Source: a virus. From it: 64,000 nucleotides of DNA. The notes beneath the pieces were generated by a model. The model was not told where the DNA came from. It did not search any database and saw only the letters and a program-made list of their open reading frames with translations. Shown in pieces: positions 2,930 through 61,579 of the stretch (positions are counted from its first letter, which is position 1; each line of letters opens with the position of its first letter). The stretch covers positions 28,413 through 92,412 of IMG/VR virus record IMGVR_UViG_3300037088_000882. One strand, given 5' to 3'. Both the position numbers and the translations under genes were made by a program.

Positions 2930-3472
2930 TTAAAACCCAAGGTTTGCTTTTGATTCTCTGCGTTTGTTAATTGAATCATATTTCATAGAATTTCTAAATA
3001 CAAAAGTAATTGGAGTTTTTTCATTGTAATAACTTGTAAGTACAAAGGTTCTTGTTTTAAATTCCCAGGTTATTTCTTGTTTTATGCCATTTTCTTTAGT
3101 TTCTTCTTTTTTGTTTTCGAAACTGGTTTCAGATCCTAATCTTTCAACAAGTCTGTTATATAAAGTTTGAAGGCCTCCAATTTCGTGGCATTCTTCTTCA
3201 TTATAAAAAATACCGATTGAATATAAAGTATCATCAAGAAAAGAGCATGCGGCGGCTGCGGCAGTTTTCATTACAGCAAGATACTGATAGACACCTATTT
3301 CATGCTCGATATCTTTGGCAGGGAATTCTTCAGCATCTGGGTGAGCTTTTTTGAAATGCCCTAGAGTCATTCCTATTTTTAAATCCTCAAATTTAAAATC
3401 TTCTGATTTTTGGGAATAGCTTAAGCTGAATAAGAAGAGAGACGTTAAGATTAGACGTGGGATTGTTTTCAC
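2930..3472 (-). CDS. secreted hypothetical protein
   Basis: Signal peptide MKTIPRLILTSLFLFSLSYS; SD AAGGA. Confidence 0.65.
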   Translation of the reverse strand: MKTIPRLILTSLFLFSLSYSQKSEDFKFEDLKIGMTLGHFKKAHPDAEEFPAKDIEHEIGVYQYLAVMKTAAAAACSFLDDTLYSIGIFYNEEECHEIGGLQTLYNRLVERLGSETSFENKKEETKENGIKQEITWEFKTRTFVLTSYYNEKTPITFVFRNSMKYDSINKRRESKANLGF

Positions 3473-3552
3473 AGGCTTCCTTTCTTTTTGGTTTAGAATG
3501 CCTATGAATATTATACATGTATTTTGAGAGAGGTATAGAGGATTTTTTTAGA

Positions 3553-3639
3553 TGGTACCGGAAGAGTGACTTGAACACTCACGGGATTGCTCCCAATAGA
3601 TCTTGAATCTATCGCGTCTCCCAATTTCGCCATTCCGGC
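3553..3639 (-). tRNA. tRNA-Leu(CAA)
   Basis: Cloverleaf, anticodon arm ATAGA-TTCAAGA-TCTAT, long variable arm, encoded CCA. Confidence 0.95.
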
Positions 3640-3746
3640 TTAAGTGGTCAGGACAGGTTTACGCCCTACGATTTATGCCACACGCTTTTTCATTTTACTG
3701 TACAGTGTGGATCTATTAATATGAAGCATTTCAGCGATTTTTAAAG

Positions 3747-3820
3747 TGGGATTGGAGGAATTCGAATCCTCATTGTGTTGATTTTAAGTCAACTGCCTCT
3801 ACCAGTTGGGCTACAATCCC
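3747..3820 (-). tRNA. tRNA-Leu(TAA), short variable arm
   Basis: GGGATTG/CAATCCC acceptor; GTTGA-CTTAAAA-TCAAC; no CCA. Confidence 0.85.
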
Positions 3821-3868
3821 TCAATATAAATCACATGTCTACCAATTTCAACACCTGAATAGTAAAAA

Positions 3869-3951
3869 TGGAAGGGGCAAGATTTGAACTTGCGAACTCC
3901 GAAGAGACGGGATTTACAGTCCCGGGCCTTTAACCACTCGACCACCCTTCC
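3869..3951 (-). tRNA. tRNA-Tyr(GTA)
   Basis: CGGGA-CTGTAAA-TCCCG, long variable arm. Confidence 0.95.
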
Positions 3952-3958
3952 GTAAATT

Positions 3959-4044
3959 TGCGGATAAGAAGATTTGAACTTCTAAAAGGATTACTCCTCG
4001 CTGGTCTCTGAAACCAGTGTGTTTACCAATTCCACCATATCCGC
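3959..4044 (-). tRNA. tRNA-Leu(CAG)
   Basis: CTGGT-TTCAGAG-ACCAG, long variable arm. Confidence 0.93.
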
Positions 4045-4052
4045 GTAATATA

Positions 4053-4209
4053 TAGATTGCGTTCAAGTTACTAAAGCATTTACCCCTTTCGGGATACTTG
4101 TCGATTCTCAAGATCGATGCCTTACCAATTTGGCTATATTTCCATTCGGAAACACTCGGAGTCGAACCGAGATTAGTAATGTAGGCTTTAATTGTAAAAA
4201 CGCAATCTA
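4053..4209 (-). ncRNA. circularly permuted tRNA-like RNA 1 (YrlA/Y RNA-like)
   Basis: 11-bp terminal stem enclosing T arm, closed acceptor stem (TGTTTCC-GAAT-GGAAATA), D arm, then anticodon arm (TCGAT-CTTGAGA-ATCGA). Confidence 0.75.
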
Positions 4210-4212
4210 ATC

Positions 4213-4299
4213 TGGTGCGGTCGGTCTGATTTGAACAGGCATAGGATTGCTCCCACATGCACCTCAAGCATGCGTGGCTACCAATTACACCACGACCGC
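4213..4299 (-). tRNA. tRNA-Leu(GAG)
   Basis: CATGC-TTGAGGT-GCATG, long variable arm, CCA. Confidence 0.95.
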
Positions 4300-4307
4300 A
4301 TAATTTA

Positions 4308-4452
4308 TAAAGCCATATCCGAGTTATCAATGCTATCTTGATAGATTCTATTCTATTGCCTTTACCATTTGGCTATTCCCCCATAATTGGGGGAACGTGG
4401 AATCGAACCACGAATTTTTAATGTAAGCATCAACGGTAAAGATATGGCTTTA
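4308..4452 (-). ncRNA. circularly permuted tRNA-like RNA 2 (YrlA/Y RNA-like)
   Basis: 12-bp terminal stem; T arm CGTGG-TTCGATT-CCACG, closed acceptor TTCCCCC-AATTAT-GGGGGAA, D arm, hairpin with 6-nt loop; same architecture as RNA 1. Confidence 0.75.
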
Positions 4453-4465
4453 ATTTCAAAGAACT

Positions 4466-4554
4466 TGGTGCGAATGTAGAGATTCGAACTCTAAAGAGCT
4501 GTTAAGCTTCCAGATTCTAAGTCTGGCCCCTGCTACCAATTCGGGTACATTCGC
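4466..4554 (-). tRNA. tRNA-Leu(TAG)
   Basis: CCAGA-CTTAGAA-TCTGG, long variable arm, CCA. Confidence 0.95.
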
Positions 4555-4563
4555 ATATATTTA

Positions 4564-4634
4564 AGACGGTGCCCAGGATCGAACTGGGGCTGTCGGTTTT
4601 GCGGACCGATGCCTTACCTCTTGGCTACACCGTC
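4564..4634 (-). tRNA. tRNA-Cys(GCA), C33 variant
   Basis: TCGGT-CCGCAAA-ACCGA, U73 discriminator, no CCA. Confidence 0.88.
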
Positions 4635-4783
4635 GGATAAAAGAATTTATCTAATTCAAAGACCTCGTTTAAACATATTTCATTGATTTTCTCATTTGTG
4701 AAATCAGGTTCTTGGCCTTCTTCTATGCACGAGAATTTAAATGGTACATTATCTCGTAATTCATGCCCTATTTTAATTTTCAT
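4625..4783 (-). CDS. small hypothetical protein (52 aa); stop codon inside tRNA-Cys
   Basis: MKIKIGHELRDNVPF...FFYPTV*, SD GAGGGG. Confidence 0.5.
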   Translation of the reverse strand: MKIKIGHELRDNVPFKFSCIEEGQEPDFTNEKINEICLNEVFELDKFFYPTV

Positions 4784-4800
4784 TTAATCCCCTCAGTATA

Positions 4801-4847
4801 AAACAAAAAACCCTGCTTGATCTTTAGAACCAAGCAGGGTTTTGTTT
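4801..4847 (-). terminator. attenuator terminator 1
   Basis: AAACCCTGCTTG...CAAGCAGGGTTT followed by U tract. Confidence 0.9.
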
Positions 4848-4867
4848 ATTTCTTTTTTAACTTTAGA

Positions 4868-4954
4868 TCAAGACAAAATCCTACCCGGTCCCTTTAGATA
4901 GCTAAGGTAATATGATAGACACAAAGGTAAGGATTGAATAGTCTTATTGCTCAT
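4868..4954 (-). CDS. leader peptide 1 (Leu/Tyr/Cys): MSNKTIQSLPLCLSYYLSYLKGPGRILS
   Basis: 28-aa ORF between promoter and terminator; its 3' end is complementary to the terminator 5' strand. Confidence 0.85.
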   Translation of the reverse strand: MSNKTIQSLPLCLSYYLSYLKGPGRILS

Positions 4955-4962
4955 GATAACTA

Positions 4963-4991
4963 AATATAACACAGAAAAAATAAAAAGTCAA
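4963..4991 (-). promoter_or_regulatory. sigma70 promoter of tRNA array 1
   Basis: TTGACT-17 nt-TATATT with extended TG. Confidence 0.8.
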
Positions 4992-4999
4992 TTACTTTT

Positions 5000-7072
5000 T
5001 TAAGGTTCTACTGCTGTAAAGTCATTTTCAGGAACAGTGCTTTTATTTTTAGATCCGTATTTCCCAAGACGTGGCGAAATAAGAGAGTCTTCGGAAATAA
5101 ACCCCATAAGAGCTGAAGTTAAAGCTTGCTCACTAAGATATTCTTTTATTACCTGATCTTTATTCAAAACTTTAAAAAGTTTCATAACATGAGATACTTT
5201 GCATAATGCCACTTGTCGATAGGCACTAAGAACATCTTTTTTGATAGCATTAGAGTACATAACATTATGTTGTTTTTGATGAAATTCTGCAGTTTCTTGT
5301 ATGATTGGGGATTCTTCATTAAAAAATACTGCGGATCCCATATGTCCGTCTTCAAAACGGTGTTCATCTTTATAGAAGCATATATTTACTTCATGTTGCA
5401 TATCATTTTTTCCTACAGGGACAATTATTGGCATATCTTTTTTAATTTTTATTTCTATACTAGGAGTAGAATCTCCTGTGCTTTTTGCCTTTTTAACTCG
5501 AATACGTCGCCAAATTTGTTGAGAACCATCTATTGCTACGCCAGTTTTTTTCTCACCTGTATCGCTACCTTTACCCTCACTACTCCCTTTACTTACGCCA
5601 TTTAAAAAGCTCTCCCCCTCTTGGCTAGAGTCGATGAGACCGGTACTTTTTTGGTTTACAGGAACTTCTTCGTCAGTAGGGTCTTTTTTTATTTTTGATT
5701 TATTGGAATAATCTATGACATGGATACTATCGGCAAACCTATTACCGTATTTATCTAAAATTCTTTTTAGAAGAGCTTCATTGCCAGCAATTAGATCATC
5801 GCTGTCTCTGTCTTTATGTAATTCTTTGATTGTGTTAACTATTTCTTCTGGCATGTTTTTTATAAACAGGAGTCCCCAATATTCCATAGGAAGTTCAATA
5901 CTTTTTTTCCCGTTTCCAGTAAAGAATAAATTTGATCGGCTTTGATCAGGGAAGACGCCCCAATCTGTCTCTTGTGTGTGAATCTGGGGTTCTATAATAA
6001 TAGTTAATCGATTTTGAATTTCTTTGTCAATTATTCCGAAATTTCTAAAATTTGATATATGAGAATTAAAATTATATAGCTCTCCTTTATACATAACAGC
6101 AATGAAACCACTTTCTAGAGCATAGCCGTGACATACAGGACGGGCACCTTCCCAAAGGTACCAGCTAATTTTAAGTTTGCCATCTTCGAGATAGAAGGTA
6201 TCTGCTGTTTTAAGTTTACCTATTTTTGGGGCAATAACTTTAGCTTCTGTTATGTAATACTTAGCTCCATGGCATATCCTGGTATTTCCCCTGGTAGTAT
6301 TATATTTTTGTAATTTTTCATTGAATTCTTTTTCGCATCGCGGCCATTCATCTCGATTAGCTTTTCCATAATTAAATTCTTTAACACTAACTTGAATATT
6401 GTCCAGATTAAAAAAACGTGTATTAATATAACGTGTCAAATTTGAGGTATACCCTTTTTCCGATTGCATGTATGTGTCAGTTTTTGAGTCGTTCCCCATA
6501 AGAATGATGCAGGTTCCATGATCTCTAACCCATTTTGGAGCAACTAAAGACCAATCAATTTCATCCTCTTCCCATTCTACTGACATAGGGTCGATAACGG
6601 TTGCTATCTCATCGTTAAATTCCCAACTGGAAATGCTATAGGCTTTTTCCTCTATGTCATAATACATTCGTATCATTGATCCAATACCGTTTTGGTAAGA
6701 TATGTATACAACACCAGCCCCATTCCATGGCAGAAGAGATATTCTACATCCAATACCAAAATTTGTGTGAATGACTCTATCATTTTCATTCATTTCCTGC
6801 ATGACTGCTTTACCGCTGGATTGTATGTTTGTAAAATATTTTTTAAGTTGTTCTGCGGACATGCCATCCCCATCGTCGCAAATCATATGACGGTAAACAC
6901 CCTCTTTAGTAACCGATTGCCATTCAACTCCAAACTCTACTTTTTTAGCATGGGCTTCAATGGCATTCATTAAGACTTCACGGGCCCATTGATAAGGTTG
7001 GCAAAAACGGTATGTTCTGAGAATAAAATCTGTGGCATTTTCCATGCCAATGGGGAAGCTTTTGGAAGACAT
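5000..7072 (-). CDS. GHKL (Hsp90/MORC-like) ATPase
   Basis: REVLMNAIEA, DDGDGM and NFGIG Bergerat-fold motifs. Confidence 0.8.
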   Translation of the reverse strand: MSSKSFPIGMENATDFILRTYRFCQPYQWAREVLMNAIEAHAKKVEFGVEWQSVTKEGVYRHMICDDGDGMSAEQLKKYFTNIQSSGKAVMQEMNENDRVIHTNFGIGCRISLLPWNGAGVVYISYQNGIGSMIRMYYDIEEKAYSISSWEFNDEIATVIDPMSVEWEEDEIDWSLVAPKWVRDHGTCIILMGNDSKTDTYMQSEKGYTSNLTRYINTRFFNLDNIQVSVKEFNYGKANRDEWPRCEKEFNEKLQKYNTTRGNTRICHGAKYYITEAKVIAPKIGKLKTADTFYLEDGKLKISWYLWEGARPVCHGYALESGFIAVMYKGELYNFNSHISNFRNFGIIDKEIQNRLTIIIEPQIHTQETDWGVFPDQSRSNLFFTGNGKKSIELPMEYWGLLFIKNMPEEIVNTIKELHKDRDSDDLIAGNEALLKRILDKYGNRFADSIHVIDYSNKSKIKKDPTDEEVPVNQKSTGLIDSSQEGESFLNGVSKGSSEGKGSDTGEKKTGVAIDGSQQIWRRIRVKKAKSTGDSTPSIEIKIKKDMPIIVPVGKNDMQHEVNICFYKDEHRFEDGHMGSAVFFNEESPIIQETAEFHQKQHNVMYSNAIKKDVLSAYRQVALCKVSHVMKLFKVLNKDQVIKEYLSEQALTSALMGFISEDSLISPRLGKYGSKNKSTVPENDFTAVEP

Positions 7073-7176
7073 AAAAATTATCCTTTCACTAGTAGTACTA
7101 GGGATTGGTTAAAGTAAAAAATAAACTAAGATAAAACTTGAGTTTAAAACACAAGGTTTATCCATAACATTAAAAT

Positions 7177-8004
7177 TTATGGGAATATGACCATTTCGTT
7201 TGAAACAGGTATAGATCGATCCTCTTTTTTACTTTTATTACTACTTTTCGCTGAATATATAATGTCAATTCCTTGTAAATTATTTCCGTTGAATAGCGAT
7301 TCAGTCGCAGATAGTCTATCTATGGACAAGCACCAAGCTTTTTTAGTATTTAAAAAGTCTCTTAAACGTTCAAGATCTTTTAGGCCAAAGTCACAATTAT
7401 ACCATTTTTTTCCGTATTTAATATAAGGAGGGTCTGCGTAGATGAAATCGAATGGCACATTGTTTAGGAAAGTTTCGAAATCCTCACAAGAAACGGAAAG
7501 GATTTTATCTTTTAACAACATTCTTGTCCGTTCGATTTTTCTTATGATATTTGGAGGATTCCAGTATACGTCAACATTCCAGGCACTTTTTTGATCCCAC
7601 CCTCCGATTGGCAAAGACTCTGTAATAAAGCCGTTGTATGAGGTTTTATTAAGGAAGATTACTTTAAATGTTTTTTCTAAGTTTGTTGTTGGTTCACTGT
7701 GAAAAATATTTTTGTAGGTTTCTAAATTAACAACTTGAGTTGTAATTGCTTTATAAAGGGCTTCAAATTCAGAGTTTTTTGAGGCTTTAAAAAATTTCCA
7801 AAATGACCCTACATCTTTATTAGCGTCATTAAGATGGAATTTCCATAAAGGAAAATCCTTTGCCATGTTAATTAATGACCCGCCTCCTCCGACAAAAGGT
7901 TCAGCTACTGTCCATTCTGATGTGCGGGCTTCAGGATATGTGTTTTTTATCATTAAGTCTATTTTTTTCATTAGCCTTAATTTACCGCCGGGGTATCTTA
8001 GCAT
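7177..8004 (-). CDS. dam: Dam-like N6-adenine DNA methyltransferase (D12 class)
   Basis: RYPGGK, EPFVGGG and DPPY motifs. Confidence 0.85.
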   Translation of the reverse strand: MLRYPGGKLRLMKKIDLMIKNTYPEARTSEWTVAEPFVGGGGSLINMAKDFPLWKFHLNDANKDVGSFWKFFKASKNSEFEALYKAITTQVVNLETYKNIFHSEPTTNLEKTFKVIFLNKTSYNGFITESLPIGGWDQKSAWNVDVYWNPPNIIRKIERTRMLLKDKILSVSCEDFETFLNNVPFDFIYADPPYIKYGKKWYNCDFGLKDLERLRDFLNTKKAWCLSIDRLSATESLFNGNNLQGIDIIYSAKSSNKSKKEDRSIPVSNEMVIFP

Positions 8005-8129
8005 TTATTATCCAATTCGGGTTGTGGAGTGAAAATAACGCTTTATATATAATACTCGAATTATATATAAATATAAAAATAAATCGTTTAGAATCTACGA
8101 AAGGTAGGTAATATCAGGATGGGGAGTTT

Positions 8130-8447
8130 TCAGATTTTTATTTCTATAGGTTTTAAGATCATTGATTCGTCTTCTCCTGCATATACTACAGGGATTTCTG
8201 GGTACAGCTTTTTTAATTTATTTGCAAGTTCTATTCCCCAGGTATTAAGTTTTTTTGCTTTGCCTTTTTTGAATGTTGAATAATCTGATTCGAAGCAAGT
8301 ATCGTAATATCTTATCCAAGATTCAAATTCGTTGATTAATTCTTGAGGCAGTTTTAACTCTTCGTAATCAATCATGCCACCAAGATTCTCCCATATACCA
8401 GAACTTGAGAAGTCTGGCATTACTTTTAGCTTTGTTATCTCATTCAT
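8130..8447 (-). CDS. hypothetical protein
   Basis: 105 aa ORF in operon. Confidence 0.6.
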   Translation of the reverse strand: MNEITKLKVMPDFSSSGIWENLGGMIDYEELKLPQELINEFESWIRYYDTCFESDYSTFKKGKAKKLNTWGIELANKLKKLYPEIPVVYAGEDESMILKPIEIKI

Positions 8448-8829
8448 GATTTTCCTTTAAATAAGTGGAGCTACGGGGATTTGAACCCCGAACTTTCAGC
8501 TTGCAAAGCTGACACTCTTCCAATTGAGTTATAGCCCCATTATTTTCTATCTGAATTTCAGATTTCCAGTCTTTTTGTTTCTTTTCCTGCATTGTTAAAC
8601 TTCCACCACTTTCCCAGGCAGTACGCCTTGGGTTTCCACACATATCACAGCTACATAGTTTTGTAGTATTTCTAAGTATGTAAGAGAAATACCTCAATGT
8701 TTTTTCTGTAGGCTTTGAAGAACATAACAATCCTTGAGCACGTTTCTTCCCCTTATTGGCCCCAATAAGGAAACGTTCTCTACGATCTTTTGGATGAGAC
8801 ATAATGTACCCTTTTCTAGCGTCACTCAC
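8440..8829 (-). CDS. hypothetical phage protein (CSCxMCGNPR motif); 3' part contains tRNA-Ala
   Basis: ORF track; Cys motif. Confidence 0.55.
   Translation of the reverse strand: MSDARKGYIMSHPKDRRERFLIGANKGKKRAQGLLCSSKPTEKTLRYFSYILRNTTKLCSCDMCGNPRRTAWESGGSLTMQEKKQKDWKSEIQIENNGAITQLEECQLCKLKVRGSNPRSSTYLKENHE
8466..8538 (-). tRNA. tRNA-Ala(TGC)
   Basis: TCAGC-TTTGCAA-GCTGA; G3:U70 identity pair. Confidence 0.93.
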
Positions 8830-8875
8830 TGACGCATGATAGTGGATATCATTATGTGCTCCTTTCTTTAAAATA

Positions 8876-8948
8876 AGCCGATGAGAGGGCTCAAACCTCC
8901 AACTTGCTGATTACAAATCAGCTACTCTATCAATTGAGTTACACCGGC
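8876..8948 (-). tRNA. tRNA-Thr(TGT)
   Basis: GCTGA-TTTGTAA-TCAGC; D and T loops slightly non-canonical; no CCA. Confidence 0.85.
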
Positions 8949-10249
8949 GTATGAACATATACGTTTTTAATATACTCCAAAGCATCTTCTTGATTCAAGA
9001 TCGTCCCCTCGAGTTGTTGGTCCTCGATATCGGTTAAGATAATACCGAACTCTGGGCCTTGTTTAAAGCCCATATTAAGCAAATCCTTACCAGTCACGAT
9101 TCTTGGAGGACGAATTTCTTCTGGCTCATAAGTCTTGAGCTTTTCGATAACGAAATCATAGTTCTCAAGATTCCTATGCGATGATAAACAATCTACCCGA
9201 TGAAGAGCTAAATGATCTTCAATATTAGGTAGAGCCAGAAATCTTTTCAGTCGAGAAACTCTCATTTTCTTCACATGCATAAATTTCATGTGGTTTTCGA
9301 CTAAGTCTGAAATTCGAGTTACGAAATCATTTGAAAATTTCAACCTTTTCAAAATTCCCCAAGCAATATACTTACCCTTGATATCGTGGCCACTAAACCT
9401 TATACGGTCCTCGAAGGTTTGAGTAGGTGGCTTACCCACATCATGCAATAAGGTTGCCATTCTCACCTCAATAGAAGCCTCAGTAGGAAGATTTTCAAGA
9501 GCTTTTATCGTATGCTCGAGAACATCTCCTTCGGGGTGGTATTGAGGTGGTTGCTCACAACCCTTCATGGCCCGGACCTCGGGCAGGATATGATCGATTA
9601 ATCCAGTATCAAAAAGAAGGTTTACTGCCTTCCTGTAATTACCTGCCATAAGAATCTTAGTAAGTTCATCTGCAACTCTCTCGGCCGAGACCTGGGTTAT
9701 TTCAAAGGCATGCCTTTGAACTGCCTCTATGGTGCCTGGATCGATTTTGAAATCAAACCTGGCAGAAAAACGTACAACTCTCATCATACGTAATTTATCC
9801 TCAGCAATACGGTCATCAGGATTACCTATAAGCTTTATGATACCCTTATGAAGATCTTCAATACCTCCAACAGAATCGTAAATCTTATCTTCAATTGGGT
9901 CATAGAACATCCCATTGATGGTAAGGTCCCTACGTTGAGCATCCTCTTCCATGGTGCAAAAAGAAACGCTATCGGGCCGTCGACCATCCGAGTACACTCC
10001 ATCAGTCCTATAAGTAGCTACTTCGACTTCCTGGCCTTCATGGACGACTACAATGACTCCGAAAGCTTTGCCAACTGCAAGAGTCTTATCGAATAATTGC
10101 TCGACCATTTCGGGACGTGCGTTAGTGGCTATGTCGATATCAGTTGAAGTCCTTTGTAAGAGCATGTCTCGGACATAGCCTCCAGCAAAGAGAGCTTCAT
10201 AGCCATGGTCTCGTAATTTTTTAACTACATATAATGCTTGTTGTAACAT
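8939..10249 (-). CDS. cca: CCA-adding tRNA nucleotidyltransferase with HD domain
   Basis: GGYVRD, DIDIAT, RRDLTIN, HPEGD and LLHDVGK motifs. Confidence 0.9.
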   Translation of the reverse strand: MLQQALYVVKKLRDHGYEALFAGGYVRDMLLQRTSTDIDIATNARPEMVEQLFDKTLAVGKAFGVIVVVHEGQEVEVATYRTDGVYSDGRRPDSVSFCTMEEDAQRRDLTINGMFYDPIEDKIYDSVGGIEDLHKGIIKLIGNPDDRIAEDKLRMMRVVRFSARFDFKIDPGTIEAVQRHAFEITQVSAERVADELTKILMAGNYRKAVNLLFDTGLIDHILPEVRAMKGCEQPPQYHPEGDVLEHTIKALENLPTEASIEVRMATLLHDVGKPPTQTFEDRIRFSGHDIKGKYIAWGILKRLKFSNDFVTRISDLVENHMKFMHVKKMRVSRLKRFLALPNIEDHLALHRVDCLSSHRNLENYDFVIEKLKTYEPEEIRPPRIVTGKDLLNMGFKQGPEFGIILTDIEDQQLEGTILNQEDALEYIKNVYVHTPV

Positions 10250-10250
10250 A

Positions 10251-10562
10251 TTATCCTATTTTGATATTTTCTTCTTCAATTTTAACCCCTTGTTTTTCAA
10301 GGGATTTGAGATCTCTTTCCAGTTCCTTTATATCTTGTTTTTTATGCTCCAAAACATATATGATAAATCTTTTTATAGCTATGGCATCTTCATCTGAAAC
10401 TTGAACAGTTGAATAGCTTGAAAATTGTATCTCTGATTTTGTTGGATCATCTTTTTTATAGCACAGTATTCGTGTGTTTGCACTACCGCCTGTGAAAGAA
10501 TATTCAATGCCTTCTGAAAAAAAAGATCCAGTACAGACATGCATAATATTAACATTTTTCAT
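10251..10562 (-). CDS. hypothetical protein
   Basis: 103 aa ORF in operon. Confidence 0.55.
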   Translation of the reverse strand: MKNVNIMHVCTGSFFSEGIEYSFTGGSANTRILCYKKDDPTKSEIQFSSYSTVQVSDEDAIAIKRFIIYVLEHKKQDIKELERDLKSLEKQGVKIEEENIKIG

Positions 10563-10581
10563 ATTTTATCCTATTTAAATT

Positions 10582-10659
10582 TGGGGTGGAAGACGGGGCT
10601 TGAACCCGCAACCACTGGCTTCACAGGCCAGGGCTCTAGCCAATTGAGCTACCTCCACC
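10582..10659 (-). tRNA. tRNA-His(GTG) with encoded G-1
   Basis: CTGGC-CTGTGAA-GCCAG; G-1:C73; CCA. Confidence 0.95.
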
Positions 10660-10665
10660 ATAAAA

Positions 10666-11355
10666 TCAGTCTTCTCTTACTTGAACAAATTTTTCGATGT
10701 ATTCTCGATCTTTAGTGAAAATCGGAATGTTTAAATCTACATCCCCATTAACAACACAAAAACCACGTTTCCGCACAACTGGATATTTATCGAAATTTAT
10801 TCCTTTTTTCTGGAATAGTAACTCTTGTATTTCCTTACAAGAGACTTTATTTAATTCCTTGTGTGAAAAGTTTTCTCGCCCTGCCATCTGGATTGAGTTC
10901 CTGGTGGCATCCACTTGTCTCCATATGAAATAGTTTACTACCTCATCCTGAGGAATTGAAAAAACTCTACTATCAAAACAGACGTTGCTTCCATAGAGTC
11001 GAGAAAAGACTGCACTGGCCAAGGAAGCTGATATTGAAATCATTTTTCGTGCATCGTATCCGAACCAGGCATCTGTCGAGATCTTTTTATAATCTGTTAA
11101 AAGAAAGCTTATTTCGTCGGATTGGCAGTAACAAAAACCGCACCCTTGAATGTCAGCTAATACCGTATTAGCAGTTGCGATCATTTGCTCGGTAAACTCC
11201 ATGGACCATCCTTTTCCGAATCTTTTTCTGGTGATGGTGTGGAAGGCCCGGCCATCGATCCTGAGTATTACCGGAATCCGTCTTGGTAAAGTCCAAGCTG
11301 AGACTGATTCATAACGCTTCATGCGATCGCCTAGGTCTAACCTATCACTACTCAT
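10666..11355 (-). CDS. thg1: tRNA-His guanylyltransferase Thg1-like 3'-5' polymerase
   Basis: RMKRYE, RIDGRAFH, QSDEIS, FDSR and WRQVDATRNS motifs. Confidence 0.93.
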   Translation of the reverse strand: MSSDRLDLGDRMKRYESVSAWTLPRRIPVILRIDGRAFHTITRKRFGKGWSMEFTEQMIATANTVLADIQGCGFCYCQSDEISFLLTDYKKISTDAWFGYDARKMISISASLASAVFSRLYGSNVCFDSRVFSIPQDEVVNYFIWRQVDATRNSIQMAGRENFSHKELNKVSCKEIQELLFQKKGINFDKYPVVRKRGFCVVNGDVDLNIPIFTKDREYIEKFVQVRED

Positions 11356-11602
11356 TTTTATTCCGATCTGTTATATAAGATTTAAGTCTTTTAATTATCC
11401 CATTTCCTGTTTCTATACCGTAGAAATCATTCACACAGTTATGGATTCTTTCTACGATTCGATCTGATTTTGATCCTTGTTTTACTGCGTTTTCGTAATA
11501 ATCAATCCAGTCTACAAGCATGTTGTTTTTTTGCAGTACTTCTAACACAAATTCAAGAGGTAGCCCTATAGATGATACTACAAAATGGATTCCTCTAACC
11601 AC
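11348..11602 (-). CDS. small protein resembling an alanyl-tRNA synthetase helical subdomain
   Basis: F-x-SSIGLPLE...LVDW resembles the AlaRS motif FKLYDTYGFPLD...VD. Confidence 0.45.
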   Translation of the reverse strand: MVRGIHFVVSSIGLPLEFVLEVLQKNNMLVDWIDYYENAVKQGSKSDRIVERIHNCVNDFYGIETGNGIIKRLKSYITDRNKNE

Positions 11603-11684
11603 TATTTTTTTATCGGTCGAGTATCCTGAGAACTGTGATACGTTGCGTTTAGCATGAAGCTATTACCCTTCTATTATACATAAA

Positions 11685-11770
11685 TGGCGGAGGCGAGACG
11701 AGTCGAACGTCCAAGGCCTTTCGGCCGGCGGTTTTCAAGACCGCTGAATTACCAGTTATCCTACGCCTCC
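11685..11770 (-). tRNA. tRNA-Ser(TGA)
   Basis: GCGGT-CTTGAAA-ACCGC, long variable arm, G73, CCA. Confidence 0.95.
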
Positions 11771-11780
11771 ATATATCTCA

Positions 11781-11853
11781 AGCCCACATCCTGGATCGAA
11801 CAGGAGACCTCATCCTTACCAAGGATGTGCTCTACCAACTGAGCTATGTGGGC
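11781..11853 (-). tRNA. tRNA-Thr(GGT)
   Basis: CATCC-TTGGTAA-GGATG; no CCA. Confidence 0.95.
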
Positions 11854-11856
11854 ATA

Positions 11857-12297
11857 TTACCTTAACCCGTAAAGGTACAGCAATCCTGCCCATCCACTTG
11901 GAAGGCATTCTGGTGCTGTTTCTAATTTCTTTCCGTATTTCACAGCCATTTCTAAAAAATACTTAGCATGAAAGAATGCCTCTAACATTGGCCGAGTGTG
12001 TTTGAGCCATTCCTTATTATGTTTTGAATCAAATACTTTACCAGTTCCTTCCTGGTATATTTGATCGAAGTCATCATTAAACATAACTCCTACAGGAGCT
12101 AAACTTTTTAAAGTTTCTATTATCTTTTGAGTGCTTCCCTGTATGCCGTATACTTTAAAAGAGGAATGGTAGAAACGGTAAACGTAATCCTCATAACACC
12201 AATGGTCATTAATATCTTCCAGGAGCTTTTCAAGCTCGGGGAGTCTTGCCTTGATATTTACCAAGAGGTCTTTACTAAGATCTTGTCTCTCACTCAT
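11857..12297 (-). CDS. hypothetical protein (start MSERQ; the longer ORF call runs through tRNA-Trp and the attenuator)
   Basis: SD GGGAG before ATG 12297. Confidence 0.7.
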   Translation of the reverse strand: MSERQDLSKDLLVNIKARLPELEKLLEDINDHWCYEDYVYRFYHSSFKVYGIQGSTQKIIETLKSLAPVGVMFNDDFDQIYQEGTGKVFDSKHNKEWLKHTRPMLEAFFHAKYFLEMAVKYGKKLETAPECLPSGWAGLLYLYGLR

Positions 12298-12317
12298 AAG
12301 AACTCCCTTTTTAAAGA

Positions 12318-12379
12318 TGGCAGGAGTGGATCGAACCCCCATCGTCGGTTTTGGAGACCGGGTGCTTAGCGACACTCCT
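12318..12379 (-). tRNA. truncated tRNA-Trp(CCA)-like gene (62 nt)
   Basis: AGGAGTG/CACTCCT-G-CCA acceptor, CTCCAAA loop; D arm minimal, T-stem 3' strand missing. Confidence 0.6.
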
Positions 12380-12381
12380 AT

Positions 12382-12424
12382 AAAACAAAAAACCCCGCCG
12401 AATCTTTCGATCGAGCAGGGTTTG
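12382..12424 (-). terminator. attenuator terminator 2
   Basis: AAACCCTGCTCGA...TCGGCGGGGTTT followed by U tract. Confidence 0.88.
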
Positions 12425-12452
12425 ATTTGAAACACTTTATTTTTACTTAACC

Positions 12453-12551
12453 TTACTCGATCTCCAATATAGTATGCCAATGTGCCCATGATGTCGATGT
12501 GGTGGCCATTGCATTATTAGAGGATGATGTAGTAAGATTAATTGTTTTCAT
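12453..12551 (-). CDS. leader peptide 2 (Thr/Ser/Trp/His/Ala): MKTINLTTSSSNNAMATTSTSWAHWHTILEIE
   Basis: 32-aa apparently leaderless ORF; stop region pairs with the terminator 5' strand. Confidence 0.9.
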   Translation of the reverse strand: MKTINLTTSSSNNAMATTSTSWAHWHTILEIE

Positions 12552-12558
12552 GGTTATA

Positions 12559-12587
12559 ATTATACTATATATTTCGGTTCGTGTCAA
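12559..12587 (-). promoter_or_regulatory. consensus sigma70 promoter of tRNA array 2
   Basis: TTGACA-17 nt-TATAAT, 7 nt before the leader ATG. Confidence 0.9.
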
Positions 12588-12597
12588 TATTTTTAAT

Positions 12598-13056
12598 TTA
12601 TTTCATATTTCTGCTTTTGAACTCTTCTATTATTTGTAAATGATCAAAAGCCATTTTTTCAGGTAATTCTGATATACGGAACCATTTAGCCTCTTTAGCG
12701 TCATCTCTAGCCTCTACTGCATCAATAAGTTTCTTGCTGTATGGGATGAGGGCATAATAGACAACAGACACTACTCGGCCTCTCGGGTCTCGGCCTGGGT
12801 CTCCAAAAGTTTTAAATTGTTTTAGAGGGATATTTTTTAAATCCTTGGTAGACAGAGATGTTTCTTCTTTTAATTCTCTGTAGGCGGCTTCTTCAAGGGT
12901 TTCTCCTGAGTCCAAATAGCCTCCAGGTATTGCCCACATATCTTTAAATGGGTTATTCACACGTTTTATGAGTAATATGTTTACCCATTTTCTTATTGGG
13001 GTCATGATCACAATATCAACTGTTACGTTTTGTTTTTCGTATTTTCTTTTATTCAT
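12598..13056 (-). CDS. Nudix hydrolase (ADP-ribose pyrophosphatase/NrtR N-domain-like)
   Basis: GGYLDSGETLEEAAYRELKEET Nudix box; RDPRGR; AFDH. Confidence 0.9.
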   Translation of the reverse strand: MNKRKYEKQNVTVDIVIMTPIRKWVNILLIKRVNNPFKDMWAIPGGYLDSGETLEEAAYRELKEETSLSTKDLKNIPLKQFKTFGDPGRDPRGRVVSVVYYALIPYSKKLIDAVEARDDAKEAKWFRISELPEKMAFDHLQIIEEFKSRNMK

Positions 13057-25049: not shown

Positions 25050-26027
25050 TTATCTTACAGATAACCCGTAAATACTTAAAGGACTATATTGGTCCTCTTG
25101 GTAATTTTTTTGCTCTTGTTTCTCGTCTTCTTCATGTTGTTTTTTACACTCGTTAAACAGTTTTGTAAGCAGGGCAATATCCTTAGTAGTGACAGACTTT
25201 TTTATTGCCGTAATCAAATCTTTAAAAATACGGTCGTAATGAAACCGTCTTCCAGCAAGAATGAGCATCGTTTCTGCTCGATCTATTATGGAGAGTTTCC
25301 CCTTTTTTTCAATTCGGTGCAATTTAATGTCAAGTTCTGCAAGAGCTTTTAAATCACCGTCTCTTGGCTGTATTATACGGCTTAAATTATGGTGAATAGC
25401 ATTTTTATCCATGAAAACTGTTAATGGGTCCCATTTATCCTTCTGGTAAGGATATAATGGATCATAGAGTTTTTTGGTGATGTTACTCAAGATGTAGGCC
25501 CGAGCATACACATCTTCATCTTTAAATAAGTTGAAACAATCACCTTGAATGTCACTGATTACCTTTGAAAGTCTTGATAGACTTTTGAGTAATGGGTCCT
25601 CATATCTACGTAGATGGTAAACAGCTTGTTCGCTATAGGCGTAGATCTCGTATATTTGTTTGTAAGGGCCTCTAACTTGACCAAGGAGTCCGGTAATATC
25701 AAGGAAGCCGTCAAAGGCATCAAAATCAACTTTTTCTGGCTCTAAAGAGTCCTCTTTCATAAGGCCATGGCAATGGTGGTTTATTGCGATTCCCCAAGAA
25801 GATACAGTGCCCCAAGTGACTGGGTTTGAGGCACTAGATCCTATAATCCAATGAGCTGCATTATGGTTTTGACCGAGAAAGGCATCCCATAAATCACCAA
25901 CGAAGGAGACTAAGGTCTCTGGGTATCCATAGTCCTCAGAATGGTCTTTTAGCTGATTTCCTAAACAAACCATCTGATTTATATCGTAAAATAATCCGCT
26001 AAGTCTTTCTTCGTTTGATAAGCCCAT
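25050..26027 (-). CDS. hypothetical protein
   Basis: 325 aa, SD AAGGAG. Confidence 0.65.
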   Translation of the reverse strand: MGLSNEERLSGLFYDINQMVCLGNQLKDHSEDYGYPETLVSFVGDLWDAFLGQNHNAAHWIIGSSASNPVTWGTVSSWGIAINHHCHGLMKEDSLEPEKVDFDAFDGFLDITGLLGQVRGPYKQIYEIYAYSEQAVYHLRRYEDPLLKSLSRLSKVISDIQGDCFNLFKDEDVYARAYILSNITKKLYDPLYPYQKDKWDPLTVFMDKNAIHHNLSRIIQPRDGDLKALAELDIKLHRIEKKGKLSIIDRAETMLILAGRRFHYDRIFKDLITAIKKSVTTKDIALLTKLFNECKKQHEEDEKQEQKNYQEDQYSPLSIYGLSVR

Positions 26028-39772: not shown

Positions 39773-41275
39773 ATGAAAAGAATATTTAGATCAATAATAG
39801 ATGTTAAAAAAGGTGGGATGCCCACCATTCCTTATGACGAGCTTATAAGAAATTATAAGGCTTTCGAGTCAAGCCATGTTCTGGCTGAAGACCCCTCTTA
39901 TTTACAAATTTACCATTGGATTGAAGCTCACTTTCGTAAATATAAAGAGCTACCCTCTATTGATCTTTTAAAAGAAAAAGCTCAAAATGAAGGTAGTGAG
40001 ATCATATTTGCCAATCTTGAAGAGATCCTTGTTCAAACTCCTTTTTATAGGTCCGATTATCAAGCAATTTTAAAGGAGAAGTTTGAAGAACAAAACAGTT
40101 CAAATTTTAAAGAAATACTTAATAAAACCTGGCAGGTTGCAAGTTCTGGGTTAAAAATCGGGAAGAATAAACAGGTTAAAGGTATTGATGAAGCTCTAAA
40201 TTATTTCATTGGAGAAGCAAGAAAATTTAGATACGCTTCTGGCGAGATCAAGACCGAGGGAGAGATTCGTAGTGTTGAGGATCAAAAAGAGGTTATAGAA
40301 GCTTATCAGTTAAGAAAGAAAAATCCCACTGTTGGGTTATTTACAAATATTGATAAGATTGATGAGGTTTTCAGGGGAGTTCAGTTAGGGCATTTATTTA
40401 TTGTAGCTGCCTATGTCAGTCAGGGAAAAACAACTTTTGTGGCTAACATGGCTTATAATGGAATTATGCAGGGTATGAATGGGGCCTATGTGAGTCTCGA
40501 AATGACTTACGAGGAAATGAGAGATTTGATGTATGTCCTACATTGCTCAAATCCTGATTGGTATAAACATCCAAAGTACAAGCATTTGGCTGGTAAAATA
40601 TCTTATGATAAAGTTAGGCATGGGGAATTGAATGAGTTGGAAGAAGAGTTTTTTATAACTGCATCAGAAGATTTTAAGAATCGTCCTGATTTCGGTAAGC
40701 TCGAGCTCATGCAGTATTCAGGCATAACTCCATCAGTTCTTGAAATGGAATTATACGATCGAAAAGCAAAACTCTCAGAGAGTGGCCGTAATCTAGAATT
40801 TGCCATTATAGATTATGTGGGATTAATGTCTCAGGATAAGGAACTTCGATCGGGTGATGTTAAAGCTGATTTGAACCATATGTTGAAGAGACTTAAAGCT
40901 TTTGCTTTGAATTTTGATAGTGGACGTGGACTCCGAGTAATTACTCCTCACCAGATAAACCGTGAAGGGTATAAAGAAGCCATTAAAAATGAGGGCATTT
41001 ATAGGATTACAGCTCTTTCGGATGCTAATGAATCAGAGCGTTCAGCCGATGGTGTTGTTGCTTTGTATATGAATGAGGATATGAGACGTCATGGAACAAT
41101 TAAGGTTACTTGTTTAAAAAACCGTCATGGTGCAATATTTTCTCCGTTTGATGCCAATCTTGATGTGTCTATATCGAAATGTCTTCGAGATGCTATCCAG
41201 GTTAAAGGTAATGAAGGTATAAACGATGAAGCCATGGCAATTGCTAACGTTATGGACACTGTTTTGGGGGATTAA
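39773..41275 (+). CDS. dnaB: replicative DnaB-like helicase
   Basis: SQGKT, SLEM, IDYVGL, HQINR and KNRHG motifs. Confidence 0.9.
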   Translation: MKRIFRSIIDVKKGGMPTIPYDELIRNYKAFESSHVLAEDPSYLQIYHWIEAHFRKYKELPSIDLLKEKAQNEGSEIIFANLEEILVQTPFYRSDYQAILKEKFEEQNSSNFKEILNKTWQVASSGLKIGKNKQVKGIDEALNYFIGEARKFRYASGEIKTEGEIRSVEDQKEVIEAYQLRKKNPTVGLFTNIDKIDEVFRGVQLGHLFIVAAYVSQGKTTFVANMAYNGIMQGMNGAYVSLEMTYEEMRDLMYVLHCSNPDWYKHPKYKHLAGKISYDKVRHGELNELEEEFFITASEDFKNRPDFGKLELMQYSGITPSVLEMELYDRKAKLSESGRNLEFAIIDYVGLMSQDKELRSGDVKADLNHMLKRLKAFALNFDSGRGLRVITPHQINREGYKEAIKNEGIYRITALSDANESERSADGVVALYMNEDMRRHGTIKVTCLKNRHGAIFSPFDANLDVSISKCLRDAIQVKGNEGINDEAMAIANVMDTVLGD

Positions 41276-59846: not shown

Positions 59847-59890
59847 AAAAAACAAAAAACCTCGTTGGTTTCCCAGCGAGGTTTTGATTT
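59847..59890 (-). terminator. attenuator terminator 3
   Basis: AAAACCTCGCTGG-GAAA-CCAACGAGGTTTT followed by U tract, directly before tRNA-Asp. Confidence 0.9.
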
Positions 59891-59913
59891 AATCTATTTT
59901 GTTACTTGTTAAA

Positions 59914-60003
59914 TCAAGACCCCGCCTTAGGCATAGTATCAAACATGCTATCACTAATGATAAACATAAAGCTGATACTGACGGTCTTGGTTGAAAGTAA
60001 CAT
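59914..60003 (-). CDS. leader peptide 3 (Ser-AGY/Ile/Phe/Met/Asp): MLLSTKTVSISFMFIISDSMFDTMPKAGS
   Basis: 29-aa ORF with SD AAGGA; stop region pairs with the terminator 5' strand. Confidence 0.9.
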   Translation of the reverse strand: MLLSTKTVSISFMFIISDSMFDTMPKAGS

Positions 60004-60046
60004 TGAAAGTAATTTCCTTAGTAAAGTAAACTGCGAATCTTAATTA

Positions 60047-60075
60047 AAGATAACACATAAAAAAGTTTTTGTCAA
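60047..60075 (-). promoter_or_regulatory. sigma70 promoter of tRNA array 3
   Basis: TTGACA-17 nt-TATCTT with extended TG. Confidence 0.8.
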
Positions 60076-60991: not shown

Positions 60992-61020
60992 TTGACTTTA
61001 CTTTTTAAAACAGTTATAAT
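60992..61020 (+). promoter_or_regulatory. sigma70 promoter of tRNA array 4
   Basis: TTGACT-17 nt-TATAAT, 6 nt before the leader ATG. Confidence 0.88.
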
Positions 61021-61026
61021 TATACC

Positions 61027-61104
61027 ATGTTAAAAAATACGTTAAACACAATTATAGGTACGGTCGGGATAAGTGAACGTAAGGTAGGAGGATTTCTAAC
61101 CTGA
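61027..61104 (+). CDS. leader peptide 4: MLKNTLNTIIGTVGISERKVGGFLT
   Basis: 25-aa apparently leaderless ORF; CCTGACAGGGCCT pairs with the terminator 5' strand AGGCCCCGTCAGG. Confidence 0.8.
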   Translation: MLKNTLNTIIGTVGISERKVGGFLT

Positions 61105-61134
61105 CAGGGCCTGTATTGTATAAAAAGTAAGTTC

Positions 61135-61170
61135 AAGGCCCCGTCAGGAAACCGACGGGGCCTTTTTTAT
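61135..61170 (+). terminator. attenuator terminator 4
   Basis: AAGGCCCCGTC-AGGAAACC-GACGGGGCCTT followed by U tract. Confidence 0.92.
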
Positions 61171-61367: not shown

Positions 61368-61457
61368 ATTTAACCCTTGTTGCATAGACTTGGGTTCAGC
61401 TCCTTAATAGGAGTTGTGAGTTGAAATAGGTAAGAACTGACACGCTGCCAGGAATAT

Positions 61458-61538
61458 AGGGTAGTACCGAGCCGCTCTTATAAGGCGGATAGTCGTAATG
61501 GTATGTGGAAGATATGAGTTCAAGTCTCATCTACCCTA
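61458..61538 (+). tRNA. D-armless tRNA-Ile(TAT)-like RNA
   Basis: AGGGTAG/CTACCCT-A acceptor, CCGCT-CTTATAA-GGCGG, T arm ATGAG-TTCAAGT-CTCAT; about 25-nt variable region. Confidence 0.6.
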
Positions 61539-61579
61539 CTTTTCTTTTTATATTAAGATTAAATTTCAGTATAATTAGC

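Follow-up and report, generated by a model that had tools for sequence, protein, structure and literature searches.

Enterobacterial leader-peptide attenuators include multivalent ones, such as those of thr (Thr and Ile) and ilvGMEDA (Ile, Leu and Val), in addition to those of trp, his, leu and pheA. The phenylalanyl-transfer RNA (tRNA) synthetase operon of E. coli, pheST, is likewise subject to leader-peptide attenuation, by way of the pheM leader and the level of one charged tRNA. Enterobacterial leader-peptide attenuators have also been modelled (PMC1183508). Here, we describe an element at 4991-4795 on the minus strand of a stretch of phage DNA of 64,000 nucleotides (nt) (positions 28,413 to 92,412 of the IMG/VR virus record IMGVR_UViG_3300037088_000882; "the window" below). 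The element, named unit 1, stands in front of genes for Cys, Leu and Tyr tRNAs, and we read it as a ribosome-mediated attenuator that senses a shortage of charged Leu, Tyr or Cys tRNA, a reading to which we assign a probability of about 0.7. The phage would then probably make these tRNAs only when too few of them reach the ribosomes.

Judged by its sequence, unit 1 is functionally a multivalent leader-peptide attenuator of the thr/ilvGMEDA type, and the anatomical hallmarks of that type are all found in it. Like the enterobacterial examples, it has a promoter-proximal short open reading frame (ORF) with clustered codons for several amino acids, RNA segments that can pair as 1:2, 2:3 and 3:4, a stop codon positioned to let a finishing ribosome block the antiterminator, and an intrinsic terminator before the first regulated gene. 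Unlike them, it would gate tRNA genes instead of biosynthetic enzymes, such that the molecule sensed and the product belong to the same class; the phage unit is viral, apparently leaderless and not led by a Shine-Dalgarno sequence, and there are several arrays, each with its own codon set. With pheST, it would share the leader-peptide attenuation of a gene of the translation apparatus, driven by charged tRNA, whereas the pheST attenuator controls a synthetase, senses a single amino acid and is cellular.

Three other described systems come close in one respect or another. In mycobacteria, leaderless short ORFs encoding polycysteine stall ribosomes at the codons for the scarce amino acid, which remodels the downstream RNA and switches the operon on (bioRxiv 10.1101/834739). 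They resemble what we propose for unit 1 in that a leaderless messenger RNA (mRNA) opens with a sensory short ORF, but the mycobacterial structure sequesters a ribosome-binding site, so that the control is on the translation of cysteine metabolism genes, whereas in unit 1 it would be an intrinsic terminator before tRNA genes. T-box riboswitches also have an antiterminator/terminator switch set by tRNA charging; their leaders, however, bind uncharged tRNA directly and control synthetase or amino acid genes, and unit 1 is without T-box features. In Anabaena sp. PCC 7120, the trn operon, a long tRNA array, is off until translation is impaired, its promoter carrying direct repeats bound by the repressor TrcR (PMC8421152, PMC10272220). 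It parallels our view of the arrays described here, being a supernumerary, horizontally spread set of tRNA genes that stays silent until translation is impaired. Its control, however, is at the promoter level and its response is not codon-specific, in contrast to what we propose for unit 1. The trn operon is the nearest published example of a regulated extra tRNA array, and it works by TrcR repression and not by attenuation; the terms leader peptide, attenuator and terminator have no occurrence in the paper describing it (PMC8421152). A full-text literature search returned no description of codon-matched leaders before tRNA genes, or of trp-operon-style control of tRNA genes, and neither the genome paper of Xanthomonas phage XacN1 nor a review-type paper on phage tRNAs mentions codon-matched leaders.

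The coordinates of all features are collected in Table 1. The sigma-70-type promoter of unit 1 matches the consensus at 10 of 12 positions, plus the TG of an extended -10. The ATG of the leader ORF starts 8 nt past the -10 hexamer; thus, the mRNA is probably leaderless or nearly so, taking the transcription start predicted from the promoter. In units 1, 2 and 4 (the sister units are presented below), the ATG lies 6-8 nt past the -10 hexamer, a spacing compatible with leaderless mRNA. Fewer than 190 nt, with no gene in between, separate the promoter of unit 1 from its intrinsic terminator (4843..4807), which has a stem of 16 pairs (six G-C), a loop of 5 nt and a T-rich tail and which dominates the minimum free energy (MFE) fold. 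A promoter with a 16-pair terminator nearby and no intervening gene fits a regulatory leader or a small RNA.

A first-pass annotation of the window, made from the letters alone, had already proposed an attenuator here, with a Leu/Tyr/Cys leader. The codons it listed are all present in the leader where it had placed them: nine of codons 9-20 specify Leu, Tyr or Cys, four types of Leu codon being used, and CTG is missing, as it had remarked, although tRNA-Leu(CAG) is in the array. The downstream genes it had named, tRNA-Cys(GCA), five tRNA-Leu and tRNA-Tyr(GTA), were verified with ARAGORN and with the Rfam tRNA model, the array tRNAs scoring 43-63 bits with the latter. Counted over the 27 codons after the start, 10 are cognate to the array (P = 0.002 relative to the codon usage of the phage), and the concentration of nine cognate codons in a 12-codon window has a scan P of 4e-5. 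Four of the five Leu isoacceptors find their own codon in the leader.

The full-length leader RNA of unit 1 has an MFE of -42.1 kcal/mol and folds into the 1:2 hairpin plus the 3:4 terminator (4852..4828 with 4822..4800), while RNA truncated before region 4 forms the 2:3 antiterminator, in which 4892..4873 pairs with 4845..4826 (19 pairs). RNAfold gives this helix -24 to -25 kcal/mol. It is the same helix that had been put forward at first pass, where 4891..4873 pairs with 4845..4827 at 18 of 19 positions, including four G-U. In folds where the position of a ribosome was masked, the antiterminator was retained (about -24 kcal/mol) with codon 12 or 16 in the P site, reduced to -6 kcal/mol with the ribosome at codon 20, and abolished (-2.0 kcal/mol) with the ribosome at the stop codon; a stall at codons 9-17 leaves the antiterminator fully free. 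As a control, 3000 random 43-nt windows of the genome were paired with the same terminator arm: the mean duplex was -8.2 kcal/mol (standard deviation (sd) 3.1) versus -25.0 kcal/mol for the 2:3 duplex, and 0.03% of the windows did as well. The folding z-score of the leader relative to shuffled sequences is -3.4. In these folds, four segments interact in the classical manner known from the attenuators of trp, thr and ilv. The contigs from four sequencing runs that cover 3400-12700 carry no variant within 4795-4991, so natural variation yields no covariation for these helices.

The leader DNA, used as a query against the phage, matched a second, similar terminator, and the regions upstream of the tRNA blocks were then inspected. 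In all, the window harbours three further units of the same build, two of which match their own, different tRNA sets. Unit 2, the terminator of which resembles that of unit 1 in sequence, has a leader in which 19 of 31 codons specify Thr, Ser (TCN), Ala, His or Trp (P about 1e-6), and its array consists of a Trp-like tRNA, Thr(GGT), Ser(TGA), His, Thr(TGT) and Ala. With strict wobble rules and Trp excluded, the count is 14 of 31. The Trp-like sequence (anticodon CCA; 12310-12372, minus strand) comes right after the unit 2 terminator; its 7-bp acceptor stem is perfect and it ends in CCA, but its T arm is defective. ARAGORN recognises it only once the threshold is lowered, and a variant in one peat contig, with a 5-nt insertion at 12322, is likewise uncalled. 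Trp is, therefore, counted in the looser tally only.

In unit 3, 15 of the 28 leader codons are for Ser (AGY), Ile (ATY), Phe, Met or Asp (P about 1e-4), followed by genes for tRNA-Asp, two tRNA-Met, Ile(GAT), Phe and Ser(GCT). The main run of this leader uses only AGY for Ser and only ATY for Ile, matching Ser(GCT) and Ile(GAT). Any leader scored on the array of another unit remains at or below expectation, in every pairing. The antiterminator of each of the four units has a 5′ arm that overlaps the last codons and the stop codon of the leader, and their antiterminator duplexes (-16 to -25 kcal/mol) each rank at least within the best 1% of random windows. The four leader peptides show no similarity to one another despite the shared architecture; it is their composition that tracks the tRNAs downstream.

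Furthermore, we found matched leader ORFs in five other phage lineages, four uncultured ones and the cultured phage XacN1. The Thg1-like protein encoded in the window served as the seed, giving 80 IMG/VR loci, 13 of which have tRNAs near the gene. Units were selected solely by architecture: a terminator of -12 kcal/mol or lower outside long ORFs, the longest ATG ORF ending at most 75 nt upstream of it, and tRNAs on the same strand downstream. In locus L054, a leader with Gln, Trp and Pro codons precedes genes for tRNA-Gln, two tRNA-Pro and tRNA-Trp (P = 1e-5), and a second leader with six TTA and four ATY codons precedes Leu(TAA) and Ile(GAT) (P = 1e-5). The unit of L007/L008 has five successive codons that correspond exactly to the five downstream anticodons (Ala TGC, Thr TGT, Ile GAT, Arg TCT and Met CAT), while that of L061 has Cys, Trp, Val and Leu codons before tRNA genes for Trp, Val, Cys and Leu. 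The rule also selected one ORF of XacN1 and one unmatched ORF of L042 (one of 15 codons cognate). The architecture-selected units of the other phages show the same folding logic as those of the window.

Locus L042 belongs to a 497-kb, high-GC phage. A promoter pattern occurs in it exactly three times within 20 kb, each time before a short ORF enriched in cognate codons and a tRNA array. In the best case, 24 of 49 codons are for Ala, Ser, Gly or Arg and the array comprises Arg, four Ser, two Gly and two Ala tRNAs (P = 1.5e-4); the terminators in L042 are not of the T-tract type. In XacN1, a phage of Xanthomonas citri (AP018399.1; locus L103), an 8-nt motif occurs seven times in a 45-kb stretch, six of them upstream of tRNA genes, and it looks like a phage promoter yielding leaderless transcripts. 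Twice (25416-25470 and 41091-41230 of the locus; near 30,428 and 46,104 of AP018399.1), an ATG within 4-5 nt of the motif opens a short, unannotated ORF matched to tRNAs. One has 13 codons, seven of them for Lys or Tyr, and is followed by two tRNA-Lys genes and one tRNA-Tyr gene. The other has 41 codons and is a nine-amino-acid leader, 25 of 40 codons being cognate to the next eight tRNAs (P = 9e-6).

The match was assessed across phages for nine architecture-selected units, unit 2 being absent from this test as it was removed by the long-ORF filter. Leaders scored on their own arrays have a mean z of 3.2 versus -0.02 (sd 1.4) for all other pairings, and one in 200,000 permutations of the arrays among the leaders reached the observed sum. 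In ten units (unit 2 restored), 36% of the codons are cognate in frame versus 13-14% in each of the other two frames. The attenuator interpretation of the first-pass annotation is, thus, supported by computation, in that the anatomical parts are all correctly placed and the codon match recurs and is frame-specific.

The sequence elements and where they lie, the alternative helices and the codon-match statistics are observed; from them, we infer a course of events that involves transcription start, leaderless initiation, stalling and conditional read-through. Host RNA polymerase would initiate at the consensus promoter, with the 5′ end of the mRNA at the AUG or at most 3 nt from it, and a ribosome would translate the 28-codon leader. 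With an ample supply of charged Leu, Tyr and Cys tRNA, the ribosome would reach the stop codon and cover region 2, by which regions 3 and 4 would pair and transcription would stop at the T tract near 4800. When one of these tRNAs is scarce, which could result from host shut-off, from host defence nucleases that cut tRNAs or from a high demand of the phage, the ribosome would stall at codons 9-17, leaving region 1 unwound and region 2 free; the 19-bp 2:3 helix would form before region 4 is made, there would be no terminator, and read-through would proceed into the 52-aa ORF and the Cys, Leu and Tyr tRNA genes. The new tRNAs would relieve the stall, closing a negative feedback loop.

Under zero translation, 1:2 and 3:4 would both form and the unit would be off. 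The terminator would also block transcripts reading through from the upstream gene; these provide the leader with no ribosome-binding site, and, therefore, 1:2 and 3:4 should form in them. Extra tRNA cannot cure amino acid starvation, so it would make sense for the input to be a lack of the tRNAs as such. Where defence nucleases cleave host tRNAs, phage tRNAs are known to take their place (PMC10264068, PMC11464382, PMC11555353), and unit 1 may be linked to such tRNA-cleaving defence.

Several observations weigh against this reading. No Shine-Dalgarno sequence precedes the ATG of unit 1, such that its translation would need leaderless initiation, for which the argument is solely the spacing from the -10 box. 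On a trinucleotide background, the P-value for the cognate enrichment of unit 1 is 0.02; this enrichment is the weakest among the three matched units of the phage, the +1 frame also yields seven cognate codons out of 26, and the Leu/Tyr/Cys run is broken by a Pro codon and two Ser codons. We found no ortholog of unit 1 that would show conservation or covariation of its helices, and a search of sequencing runs matched the stretch in 11 DNA runs and no RNA run.

Outside unit 1, the main internal counter-example is unit 4, unless its array is incomplete: a single codon of 24 in its leader is cognate to the two visible tRNA-Glu genes, the others specifying Gly, Thr, Ile, Lys, Asn and Val, among others. 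Behind these genes come odd tRNA-like sequences, with 2.5 kb left before the end of the contig. A structured, tRNA-like stretch at 61370-61540 (plus strand) after the tRNA-Glu pair is forced by low-threshold ARAGORN into a doubtful Gly(GCC) with a 34-nt intron. In XacN1, no canonical terminator was found after the matched ORFs; the read-out may, therefore, differ in this phage. No such leader was seen at the Tyr/Leu array of locus L018, and the small ORFs in the tRNA region of phage T5 have no evident match to the tRNAs that follow. A Cys-rich ORF of 42 amino acids before the T5 tRNA-Cys gene looks more like a zinc ribbon.

Among the alternatives, the one that survives best, although we deem it unlikely, is a translation-coupled attenuator that reports general translation capacity and answers to any slowing of ribosomes (host shut-off, ribosome-targeting toxins or global starvation), codon bias being secondary. 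The modelled switch does respond to a stall anywhere in codons 9-17, unit 4 has the switch and no visible codon match, and the Anabaena tRNA array is switched on by translational stress in general (PMC8421152). Such a sensor needs no matching, yet the match is frame-specific and survives permutation, and the codon sets are specific to each unit down to the anticodon level (Ser TCN versus AGY, Leu TTA only, and Arg AGA for TCT).

We regard it as distinctly improbable that unit 1 is a small non-coding RNA of about 155 nt, or that its terminator is an insulator from the upstream 690-aa gene, the ORF and its codons being accidental. A promoter with a close terminator is also the anatomy of a small RNA gene, the leader has no Shine-Dalgarno sequence, and attenuator RNAs can act in trans, according to one report (PMC6614838). 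However, the ORF, the stop codon at the antiterminator arm and the cognate enrichment recur in four units and in lineages unrelated in sequence, the matched diagonal and the frame specificity are beyond what chance would produce, and tRNA is the only Rfam family to reach its gathering score in a cmscan of 3300-13000.

A direct tRNA-binding RNA, T-box-like, in which codon-like triplets would pair with anticodons without a ribosome, appears very improbable. Its output would also depend on tRNA status and the leader triplets are complementary to anticodons of the array, but the same cmscan gave no T-box (RF00230) at E<=1 and neither Stem I nor the T-box sequence is present, while the many in-frame codons, the ATG at the transcript start and the stop codon abutting the antiterminator arm speak for sensing by a ribosome and not by a single specifier loop. 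In that scan, the binding site of PyrR (RF00515) was matched at 4802..4911 with 29.6 bits (E = 0.72), below its gathering threshold of 54 bits; this match probably reflects only the shared antiterminator/terminator topology. Equally hard to credit is a functional small protein of 28 amino acids with the terminator as a leaky stop between two genes. Small genes do abound in phages, and T5 and XacN1 have short ORFs among their tRNA genes, but the four leaders have no peptide similarity and their composition tracks the downstream tRNAs. None of these alternatives accounts for unit-specific codon sets that follow their own arrays in the correct frame.

The contig from which the window is taken has a G+C content of 37%, and CheckV estimates it to be 20% complete; at 92.4 kb, this implies that the source is a huge phage. 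The 11 DNA runs that contain the stretch are from peat metagenomes of several studies, and an identical copy of the 690-aa protein encoded upstream of unit 1 is present on another contig, of 474 kb. Megablast found no match of the phage DNA among GenBank phages. ARAGORN predicts 20 tRNA genes in the window, in four blocks that each occupy one strand. The block of unit 2 with Thr, Ser, His, Thr and Ala tRNAs includes genes for a Thg1-like tRNA-His guanylyltransferase and a CCA-adding enzyme.

The 690-aa HATPase-like gene has no relative in IMG/VR; homologs at 30-44% identity do exist, and none of the 15 metagenome loci that were recovered shows a tRNA array next to the gene. Relatives of the CCA-adding enzyme led to three loci with almost no tRNAs, and a DNA pattern derived from the terminators common to units 1 and 2 retrieved nothing else from IMG/VR. 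The 52-aa ORF past the terminator of unit 1 has no Pfam or PHROG match.

Leu tRNAs of bacteria usually carry a long variable arm. The tRNA-Leu(TAA) gene in the array (3746-3820, minus strand) has merely 75 nt and lacks this arm, so its amino acid identity may differ from the call. Within the array, two spacers of about 170 nt each (4044-4213 and 4299-4466, minus strand) contain no ARAGORN tRNA; the Rfam tRNA model gives a partial, sub-threshold match at 4091..4143 (24.8 bits). In other huge phages, tRNAs with the amber-reading anticodon CTA (labelled Pyl by ARAGORN) were seen in L054 (9781), L083 (5738), L087 (7679) and L103 (31048 and 31131), the last being known for XacN1.

Table 1. Features of unit 1 and its array, of the sister units, and of the promoter-pattern sites in L042; functional names are predictions. 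All positions are those of the window, except in the last row (locus L042).
Feature	Position	Strand	Remarks
Window	final 64 kb of the 92.4-kb contig		
690-aa HATPase-like gene	ends 5000	-	directly upstream of unit 1
Sigma-70-type promoter	4991..4963	-	-35 4991..4986; spacer 17 nt; extended -10 TG 4971..4970; -10 4968..4963
Leader ORF	4954..4871	-	28 codons; TGA stop 4870..4868
Sensing codons 9-20	4930..4895	-	Leu Pro Leu Cys Leu Ser Tyr Tyr Leu Ser Tyr Leu
Region 1	4946..4926	-	5′ arm of anti-antiterminator (pause-type) hairpin; pairs with 4886..4869 in MFE folds
Region 2	4892..4873	-	antiterminator 5′ arm; last eight leader codons; ends 2 nt before stop codon
Region 3	4852..4826	-	shared arm; antiterminator 3′ arm 4845..4826; terminator 5′ arm 4852..4828
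Region 4	4822..4795	-	terminator 3′ arm 4822..4807, then T tract
52-aa ORF	4783..4625	-	first gene past terminator; good Shine-Dalgarno; end overlaps tRNA-Cys by 10 nt
tRNA-Cys(GCA)	4634..4564	-	ARAGORN
tRNA-Leu(TAG)	4554..4466	-	ARAGORN
tRNA-Leu(GAG)	4299..4213	-	ARAGORN
tRNA-Leu(CAG)	4044..3959	-	ARAGORN
tRNA-Tyr(GTA)	3951..3869	-	ARAGORN
tRNA-Leu(TAA)	3820..3746	-	ARAGORN
tRNA-Leu(CAA)	3639..3553	-	ARAGORN
Unit 2	12587..12380	-	promoter 12587..12559, 12/12 consensus positions; ATG 7 nt past -10 box; 32-codon leader
Unit 3	about 60075..59850	-	5′ untranslated region of ~37 nt, unlike the other units
Unit 4	60993..61170	+	same design of promoter, leaderless ATG, antiterminator and terminator
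L042 promoter-pattern sites	4887, 8746, 18161	+	ORF codons: Lys; Glu/Asn; Arg/Ser/Gly/Ala

The reasons why phages carry tRNA genes have long been debated: codon compensation, replacement of degraded host tRNA, and escape from tRNA-cleaving defences. How the expression of phage tRNA genes is controlled is a subject on which we found no description in the literature. We consider it rather probable that huge phages of several unrelated lineages possess a modular homeostat of tRNA supply, in which each tRNA operon is gated by a leader ORF written in the codons of its own tRNAs, measuring the speed of decoding codon by codon and switching on exactly the tRNA set that is short, with 4991-4795 as the Leu/Tyr/Cys channel. 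It would serve, for instance, after cleavage of host tRNA by anticodon-nuclease defence systems (PMC10264068, PMC11464382, PMC11555353) or after its loss in host shut-off.

The near-consensus sigma-70 promoter suggests that a reporter could work in a laboratory bacterium, and similar matched leader ORFs are carried by a cultured phage, XacN1. Units of this kind could also be used as natural reporters, specific for given codons, that reveal when defence systems deplete tRNAs. If the reading is true, the phage treats tRNAs as an on-demand resource, and each leader would be a readable list of the codons it monitors, that is, of the decoding shortages that the phage expects. Leader-peptide attenuation, known for amino acid operons and a synthetase, would then also reach viruses and tRNA genes, as a direct feedback loop in which the molecule sensed is the product.

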